A DNA stretch of 64,000 nucleotides from a virus (taxonomy: Duplodnaviria > Caudoviricetes), in IMG/VR virus record IMGVR_UViG_3300035562_000082, positions 1 through 64,000 of that record; one strand, written 5' to 3'. Shown one piece after another: positions 41,265 through 43,016 of the stretch (position 1 is the stretch's first letter; every line of letters begins with the position of its first letter). The position numbers and the translations under genes are program-made. The notes under the pieces are model-generated. The model did not search any database and was not told where the DNA came from. It saw nothing but the letters and a program-made list of their open reading frames with translations.

Positions 41265-43016
41265 GTCGTCCAATAAGAGAGCGTCAAACCCCCGGAACGA
41301 GTCATTATGTAAGTGAGCACCACACGACTAGAATGAATCGCGCAGAGAGAGTACCTTGTGGTTCGAATGAATCAAGCATTGCTAGAGCACCTAGTTCAGG
41401 GAATGAGCTACGAAACAAGAGCGTACCGTTCTTCACGAGTGAGTCATCCTAGTTGAGAGCACCATCAACTTTGAACGAGTCAAAACGTAGGAGCGTGCCA
41501 GATGTATGGAACGAACCGGGCAAGACGAGTGGACCATCATGATCTAGTGCGTCACCAGACTTGAGAGAACCGAACAACCTGAATGAGTCATTGTCACTGA
41601 GAGTATCAGGCTTCCGGAACGAGTCCTTCAAGGCAGAGGGTGCCAATAGTTGTGAATGAACCGTCGATACGGAGAGCACCACGCATGGGCAGTGCATCAA
41701 TGAGATTGAGAGCGCCTAAAGCCCGTGAATGAACCATGCTTCCCGAGAGCATCAAATGAAAGGAGTGAGTCGTTATTGCCGAGAACACCAAGCAAAATGA
41801 ATGAATCACGCGACACGGAGAGCGCCAAGAAGTATGAATGAGTTCTGTCGAAGCGAGAGCGCCACCAAGAAGGAACGAGTCATCGAACCTGAGAGCACCA
41901 GAAGCTCGAAATGAGTCAATTCAATGAAGGGCACCACGTTCTCAGAATGAACTGGCTTGTAGGAGAGTCCCGGGCACGCGGAGTGAATCAGTTGCAATGA
42001 GCGGGACCGTGCAATTGGAATGAACCTAGCTTAGTGAGTGCGCCGTTTGTAAGGAGTGTGCGAAGCCAGAAGAACCGTGAGGATCAAAAAAGCGGAGCGA
42101 GTCGTATTGAGTGCGTGCACCGTTTGTCAAGAACGAACCGCGATAAGTGATAGAACCTCGATTCGGGAAGTGCATCAAGTTAATAGAGAGTACCAGCTTA
42201 ATTGAGTGAGCCAGTTGGACCGAGAGTACCGTGGAAGACGAGCGAGTCTCATGGAGGGAGAGTACCCCTGTTTATGAACGAGTCGGGGAAGACAGAGTGT
42301 ACCGATGGAAGTGAATGAGTCATTATGTGAGCGAGCGCCTGTTGTTGAACGAGTCGTTGTAAATGAGAGCACCAATTGCGCTGTATGTGGCTAGATCCGA
42401 TACAGCGAGTGCACCAATGGAAGTGAGTGAGTCACGATAAGAGACAGTGCCTGTTAGTTGGAGTGCGTCGGTTATCGAGCGGGGGCCTGAATGGTCGAGC
42501 GAGTCACGAAAGTGTGAGGGCCGCTGCAACGGAACGAACCTAAATGACGGAGAGCCACCTGTCTGTTGGAGTGGGTCAATGTAGGTGAGAGTACCACGAT
42601 GTTGAGAACGAGTCTTTGGGAAATGCGAGCACCACGTATTCAGAGTGGAATCTTGCACCTGAAGTGCACCGAAGTTGTTGAGCGAGATCAAGACTTACGA
42701 TAGTACCAAAACCGTCGAGTGAGGCAGTGGCAGGTGTGGGAACCGGAGATACTGATCGAGTCCGTGATGTTGGATAGACCCACTGAACAGAGTGAATCCA
42801 GTTTGGTGAGAGCGCCAACTACGTCGAGTGCGTCATTTCAGTAGAGAGTGCCTTTTCGATAGAACGAGCTATAGATTCTGCGAGAACCATGTATCAAGAA
42901 CGGGTCATCTATCGGGATTAGTATCGCGGAACTTGAACGAACTACAATGGTCGTGAGTACCTGAACGATGTGAGTGAGTCATTGTTAATGCGAGTGCCTA
43001 GGGTCGAGAACGTTGT
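41259..43016 (+). repeat. TIGR array (tandem interspaced guide RNA array), about 48 units of 36 bp
   Basis: Alternating degenerate 9-nt repeats GARYGARYC and GAGAGYRCC separated by unique, mostly 9-nt (7-10) spacers; first repeat overlaps the tasA stop codon. Confidence 0.88.

Follow-up and report, generated by a model that had tools for sequence, protein, structure and literature searches.

The window, by which we mean the whole 64-kb stretch of DNA analysed, makes up the first 64 kb of a 117,594-bp single-contig soil phage record (55.6% GC) whose genes include those for a portal protein, a major tail protein and a DNA polymerase. Portal searches place this phage in a clade of 95-120-kb genomes with 45-54% portal identity, the members of which are uncultured IMG/VR genomes together with the Stenotrophomonas phages DLP_3, DLP_5 and Summit. 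For the comparisons described below we examined 15 relatives, comprising 12 IMG/VR genomes or fragments and 3 cultured Delepquintavirus (Stenotrophomonas) phages; two of the uncultured relatives encode a Tas homologue (50% identity) and have arrays built from the repeats found here. A protein search of 5.8 billion sequences for closer kin returned nothing above 62% identity for any protein of the phage (the best identities to relatives being 62% for Tas and 49% for a PPDK-like protein), implying that a truly close competitor is missing from the data, and a megablast comparison of 11 kb of the phage with cultured phages gave zero matches. The PPDK-like protein, a homologue of pyruvate phosphate dikinase encoded at 56379-58349 (PF01326 + PF00391), is conserved across the clade, including Stenotrophomonas phage DLP_3.

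At the centre of the locus lies the gene tasA, which is directly followed by a long repeat array (Table 1). A family profile for the TasA protein, assembled from 25 homologues, matches TasR (9mty, E 7e-20), TasH (E 5e-12) and the IS621 bridge-RNA recombinase. An AF2 model of the protein (pLDDT 84, pTM 0.82) is all-helical except for one small hairpin, with long N-terminal helices, and the top 10 PDB matches found for it by Foldseek were all TasH or TasR chains with a probability of 1.0. Profile and structural comparison together assign the protein to the Nop/IS110 RNA-binding-domain fold, which includes a coiled-coil pair of dimerisation helices. A Pfam search for nuclease families (HNH, RuvC) found none, the entire 351 residues being covered by the Tas core, and the protein is therefore of the TasA type. 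Two residues, Y322 and H329, are conserved in at least 90% of the 25 homologues and align, in a weak segment of the alignment, to a Tyr and a His near the TasH C terminus. A Tyr/His processing dyad has been described near the C terminus of Tas proteins from dual-repeat systems, and the position of the pair seen here would fit a dual-repeat processing loop. In addition, the Nop-like domain contains a Cys-rich insertion at 40580-40660 (residues ~125-150) with four cysteines spaced C-x10-C-x5-C-x3-C, which is modelled with low confidence, is missing from the homologue consensus and may be a small zinc ribbon.

A parse of 41259-43007 resolved 96 repeats that fall into two alternating classes, edge and loop, giving 48 units of ~36 nt each, with a spacer length of exactly 9 nt in 72 of the 96 cases. 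The alternation of two repeats with ~9-nt spacers, the 36-nt unit and the adjoining tas gene identify this as a dual-repeat TIGR array. The array starts at the tasA stop codon, with an edge-type first repeat that overlaps it, and finishes in a truncated edge repeat, a 5-nt stub at 43008-43012; no rho-independent terminator was called downstream of the array, and an Rfam search of the array returned no matching family. Both repeat classes begin with GA and end with YC followed by a purine, so that by analogy the repeat starts might be described as box D-like and the repeat ends as box C-like. The first spacer position is purine-biased (A in 42 and G in 19 of 72), which raises the possibility that the repeat is 10 nt long and leaves an 8-nt free guide, or that this base is read by the protein. 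In the arrays of two relatives, the same position is G in 46/63 (G003, 107813-109380) and 76/91 spacers (G004, 94357-96435). Some spacers of the array resemble one another: those at 41518-41526, 42231-42239 and 42285-42294 are near-identical and share GRAAGAC, those at 41304-41312 and 42322-42330 have ATTATGT in common, and 3 pairs reach 8/9 identity against ~0.8 expected.

Table 1 Features of the tasA-array locus and of the promoter family in the window.
Feature	Position	Strand	Basis
tasA, 351-aa nuclease-less TIGR-associated protein	40209-41264	+	ATG at 40209 after GGAG ribosome site
Dual-repeat TIGR array, 48 units	41259-43012	+	Position-weight parse; edge GARYGARTC, loop GAGAGYRCC
Unit 20 (0-based), spacers rebuild 12-bp core of dispersed GCAATYRATTGC motif	41981-42026	+	Published geometry only
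Edge repeat of 24th unit (unit 23, 0-based)	42095-42103	+	PWM score 10.8
Spacer A of 24th unit, GTATTGAGT	42104-42112	+	Sequence and parse
Loop repeat of 24th unit	42113-42121	+	Variant with C at position 2, seen in 7/48 loop repeats
Spacer B of 24th unit, GTTTGTCAA	42122-42130	+	Exact reverse complement of promoter word TTGACAAAC
Edge repeat of next unit; predicted 3' end of 24th unit's tigRNA within it	42131-42139	+	Parse
Promoter -35 word, extended -10 downstream	6142-6150	+	Word match and promoter context
Promoter -35 word	6268-6276	+	Word match and promoter context
Promoter -35 word	8439-8447	+	Word match and promoter context
Promoter -35 word, dispersed motif upstream at 15409	15429-15437	+	Word match and context
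Promoter -35 word, dispersed motif upstream at 25433	25454-25462	+	Word match and context
Promoter -35 word	32809-32817	+	Word match and promoter context
Promoter -35 word, dispersed motif upstream at 34093	34114-34122	+	Word match and context
Promoter -35 word	35115-35123	+	Word match and promoter context
Promoter -35 word	43807-43815	+	Word match and promoter context
Promoter -35 word	56230-56238	+	Word match and promoter context
Promoter -35 word	62182-62190	+	Word match and promoter context

The unit that concerns us here, the 24th of the array, is by its anatomy a genuine and ordinary tigRNA unit of a TIGR-TasA system, and the repeats that flank its spacers are well preserved (scores 10.8, 8.1 and 10.0). 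Its second spacer had been reported in a preliminary description to be the exact reverse complement of the -35 word of a phage promoter family, and both the sequence and the coordinates of this match were confirmed. Taking the array's own column composition into account, the chance that any of the 96 spacers equals TTGACAAAC or its complement is 5.8e-4. The corresponding chance that some spacer equals any 9-mer present in at least 10 genome copies is 0.13, and for the ~62 words that, like TTGACAAAC, have at least 14 copies it is roughly 0.02. The remaining spacers of the array gave no matches to repeated words of the phage and its relatives. Given the purine bias at spacer position 1, the free guide behind the 9-nt match may measure 8 nt, and taken alone the match is weak evidence for a promoter guide. 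The array contains two register breaks, the main one at 42045-42094. This main break includes a AAGGAGTG stretch that resembles the phage's commonest ribosome-site word, and the B spacer of the unit immediately before the break is identical to GTTTGTCAA at 7/9 positions.

The word itself is strongly over-represented, with 14 copies in the window against 0.58 expected, and the 11 plus-strand sites said to head promoters were all recovered (Table 1). A TGTG-type extended -10 lies 8-9 nt past the word at 11/11 of these sites, a ribosome site and start codon follow within 40-75 nt at 10/11, and the bases upstream of the word show no conservation across the 11 promoters. All of them fall within the first 62 kb, with zero in the late half of the genome. 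There are four minus-strand copies, one in the array and three at 49892, 53705 and, beyond the window, 116583; these three lack a -10 and look like chance occurrences. A minus-strand promoter inside the array was considered and rejected, as there is no -10 and a promoter scan returned nothing. Most of the uncultured relatives carry 6-14 strand-specific copies of the word in the same architecture, and the cultured Stenotrophomonas phages contain no exact match to the -35 word plus TGTG at a fixed 9-nt gap. These data support the prediction, made from sequence, that TTGACAAAC is a family-wide sigma-70-type promoter element.

What DNA such a unit would recognise follows from the published pairing geometry of TIGR systems, in which cleavage of either strand falls next to the base that pairs with spacer position 5 and leaves 8-nt 3' overhangs (Faure et al. 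2025, PMC12045711). Because overhangs of this kind require pairing in the 3' half of each strand, the target consists of spacer A and, directly after it, the reverse complement of spacer B, in agreement with the target predicted in the preliminary description. There it had been suggested that this target might lie in a related phage or at a locus outside the window. The latter can be excluded, since the best ungapped site in the complete 117.6-kb genome has 4 mismatches; the best gapped self site, with 3 mismatches and a 2-nt gap at 102507, lies in coding-like sequence with no promoter features. Nor was the target found in any of the 15 relatives, all of them distant, where the best site has 3 mismatches. 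In neither the phage genome nor the relatives did the two spacers fully match neighbouring stretches of the two strands with 0-2 bp between them: the promoters carry only the spacer-B half, and full sites, with 3-4 mismatches at best, occur at chance frequency. Spacer A agrees with the flanks of the phage's own promoters at 2-4 of 9 positions, a random level, and allowing wobble pairing did not, by eye, improve on this. Self-targets were likewise rejected for all 48 units, their minima of 3-7 mismatches in the 117.6-kb genome being as chance predicts.

The related sequence, 2.29 Mb in all, contains 132 distinct sites with the promoter word. Spacer A matched the flank at 6 or more of 9 positions in 4 of them against 3.96 expected, the best being 7/9 with a 1-nt gap (G3:77277 and G1:14264 are among the 6/9 and 7/9 sites), and nothing above chance emerged from the 12 IMG/VR relatives, 3 cultured phages and ~100 further loci. 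In IMG/VR, neither the exact 18-mer nor a relaxed promoter-context pattern (16-mer plus extended -10) was found, and gapped forms of the 18-mer gave 4 matches, in unrelated viruses of 28-37% GC. The exact 18-mer had 31 matches in JGI metagenomes and 20 in GTDB genomes, the latter against ~17 expected by chance (596 Gb). These JGI and GTDB matches come from a wide scatter of unrelated taxa; none has the family's promoter context around it and none belongs to a relative of this phage. A full target of the predicted kind is absent from the data searched. Since all available relatives are distant (45-54% portal identity and at most 62% for any protein), its absence from them is weak evidence.

The preliminary description had itself regarded a 9-nt match as weak, and had let it gain weight from an operator-matching unit in the same array. 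That second match proved to be statistically real. Unit 20, three units upstream of the 24th, matches the dispersed GCAATYRATTGC motif at 12/12 positions when its spacers are combined in the published geometry, and with at least 3 mismatches in each of three control geometries; the probability of such a junction-spanning match to a repeated 12-mer is ~1e-3 or less after correction for the look-elsewhere effect. The prior for a second guide aimed at a cis-regulatory element is therefore raised. Like the promoter word, the motif is found in most uncultured relatives, in up to 50 copies. At five promoters it lies 8-10 bp upstream of the -35 (motif positions 15409, 25433, 31117, 34093 and 37057), which makes both words parts of a single regulatory module. 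In its asymmetry, its copy number (26) and its biased orientation, the motif is reminiscent of mycobacteriophage stoperators. The 19-nt target of unit 20 has 3-7 mismatches at the phage's own copies. In one relative (G008, IMGVR_UViG_3300046463_000247) five of the 50 motif copies come within 2 mismatches of this target, and copies such as those at 10811, 11500, 39370, 39763 and 51456 are closer to unit 20 than any home copy. A scan of the same genome, limited to repeat units, detected no R1-spacer-R2 units. That unit 20 fits relatives' copies better than its own suggests non-self targeting.

Two motif copies in the same orientation, at 40165-40176 and 43028-43039, bracket the tasA-array cassette. 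The one at 40165-40176 runs over the stop codon of the preceding gene, and after the one at 43028-43039 comes a TTGGAA-18-TATACT promoter (43045-43074).

To place the two units in a wider context, an IMG/VR scan with the repeat pattern yielded 22 further distinct arrays with the same repeats, for a total of 23 arrays, 617 units and 1,409 spacers. The idea that TasA array spacers are in general enriched for promoter motifs found no reproducible backing in the 22 other arrays. Three of the 1,409 spacers contain 7 or more letters of the promoter word against ~1.5 expected by our estimate, no other unit among the 617 has either motif in its predicted target, and in 1.5 Mb of relatives the true geometry gives as few near-perfect targets as do the controls. 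The hexamer TTGACA occurs 9 times in 1,272 unique 8-10-nt spacers of the 23 arrays against 2.64 expected (p 0.0017), ranking 10th of 2,080 hexamers. When the three arrays that prompted this comparison are removed, the count falls to 4 against 1.85 (p 0.12); a general enrichment for promoter words, although suggestive, falls away without the discovery arrays and was rejected.

Taken together, we favour the possibility that the 24th unit guides TasA to a promoter of this family in non-self DNA, which we put forward as a candidate guide and a tentative lead, somewhat short of an even bet, rather than as demonstrated fact. From the likeness to characterised systems we infer tigRNA processing, DNA binding, repression and the existence of a target, as follows. 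By analogy with dual-repeat systems, array and tasA would share a transcript, cleavage in the edge repeats would release 36-nt tigRNAs, and a TasA dimer would hold each of them. The tigRNA of the 24th unit would melt an 18-bp duplex whose sequence is spacer A plus the reverse complement of spacer B; spacer B would pair with the strand that carries TTGACAAAC, and spacer A with the other strand across the 9 bp that immediately precede the word. In a family promoter this site would span about -44 to -27, so that TasA would occlude the sigma-70 contact at the -35 and block initiation. Half of the site would be the conserved -35 word, and specificity would come from the variable flank upstream of it; with no more than 4/9 positions of that flank matching spacer A, the 11 promoters of the phage itself would escape. 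The likely target would then be one promoter of another, not yet sequenced, phage of the family.

Coincidence is nearly as likely. On this account the unit gives rise to a normal tigRNA, the identity of its spacer B with the complement of the word is fortuitous, and any true target it has is unconnected with promoters; we hold this to be a serious contender at a little over a third of the weight. A 118-kb genome holds most 9-mers, as is evident from the 48 of 92 spacers with an exact genome match against 42.6 +/- 4.4 for shuffled spacers, and that some spacer should equal some highly repeated word has a p of 0.02-0.13. A match to the second half-site was found nowhere, the 22 other arrays show no generalisation, and the published view is that short spacers yield many false target matches. 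Set against this are the p of 5.8e-4 for one word named in advance and the presence in the same array of unit 20, whose in-geometry 12/12 match to the family's other cis element has a p of ~1e-3 or less, implying that the array is not blind to the family's regulatory words.

Three further accounts are, even jointly, unlikely. In the first, which we consider improbable, the unit guides nothing now, its spacer having been copied from a promoter region or duplicated from a neighbour and having drifted since. The unit does directly follow the main register break; no two units of the array resemble each other more than units 21 and 23 do (11/18 identities overall, 7/9 between their B spacers), and related arrays share blocks of spacers, with units inherited and lost over time. 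However, a top pair at 11/18 among ~950 pairs is within chance, the repeats around the unit show no sign of decay in their scores, and published TIGR work gives no mechanism of spacer origin.

More improbable still is the proposal that spacer B alone brings TasA to the phage's own 11 early and middle promoters, including that of tasA, as a global shut-off or feedback. It draws on the 9/9 match of spacer B at every one of these promoters, on their confinement to the first 62 kb of the genome, and on a reported TasH structure in which only the spacer-B duplex is formed. Yet single-spacer guides fail to support TasR activity and both duplexes are monitored, so that the need for both spacers in the systems studied argues against a half-site role; the phage's own promoters match spacer A no better than random sequence, and a requirement of only 9 nt would place each of the 96 spacers on dozens of host sites. 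Finally, a promoter of the host or of another mobile element, rather than of a related phage, is a very improbable target: although TTGACA is the general sigma-70 -35 consensus and 1 of the 51 exact matches (L021, a 3-kb metagenome contig of 58% GC) has a plausible TG-extended -10 at 17-nt spacing, the matches occur at the chance rate in scattered unrelated taxa, mostly AT-rich Bacteroidota, and one promoter-like context in 51 is itself expected by chance.

The closest known counterpart is the dual-repeat TIGR-TasA type represented by FpTasA of Flavonifractor plautii (PMC12045711), with which the phage locus shares a nuclease-less protein of the Nop/IS110-RBD type encoded before the array, two alternating 9-nt repeats with ~9-nt spacers and a 36-nt period, a phage setting, and the tandem-spacer geometry, confirmed here by unit 20. 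It differs in having 48 units rather than the usual 5-15, in an array that begins inside the tasA stop-codon region and has no detected terminator at its end, in the Cys-rich insertion of its TasA, and in two units that relate to cis elements of the phage's own family, whereas natural targets are unreported there. That proteins of this kind can act on transcription is indicated by MbTasA and a catalytically dead TasR, both of which repress transcription in reporters through tigRNA-guided DNA binding (Xu et al., bioRxiv 10.64898/2026.09.09.750476). Those are stem-loop systems directed at engineered E. coli targets, whereas the phage system is of the dual-repeat type and its candidate is a natural -35 of which one half is matched. 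Cas9 directed by scaRNA or long tracrRNA represses promoters through partial matches, and short complementarity can suffice. Nuclease-free and self-regulating CRISPR systems resemble the proposed mechanism in that an RNA-guided protein would sit on a promoter and repress without cutting; TasA, in contrast, belongs to an unrelated protein family, uses no PAM and would recognise its target in two parts, on both strands. Type IV-A and V-M CRISPR are among the systems cited, for interference by binding, in PMC12045711.

The TIGR papers describe the natural targets of TIGR-Tas systems as not yet assignable because spacers are short and context is missing. The phage array offers a cheaply testable hypothesis in this regard, namely that a nuclease-free TasA silences the promoters of rival phages. 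Extending the promoter-guide reading to the array as a whole, its 48 units might constitute a library of programmable repressors directed against the -35 word and the 12-bp motif of competing relatives, the phage's own copies being spared by mismatches in the variable halves. We think this broader picture doubtful, if possible. If it were true, units 20 and 23 would provide the earliest case in which natural targets of a TIGR system could be recognised, and these would be visible only because both words are conserved across otherwise diverged genomes.

Finally, among the IMG/VR loci with arrays of this kind, several sets (L179/L189/L205, L172/L191, L186/L194 and L175/L200) have 22-33 identical spacers on different contigs while the rest differ. 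TIGR arrays of this repeat family therefore gain and lose units as they are inherited, and those that share spacer blocks provide usable material for the question of how TIGR arrays grow.
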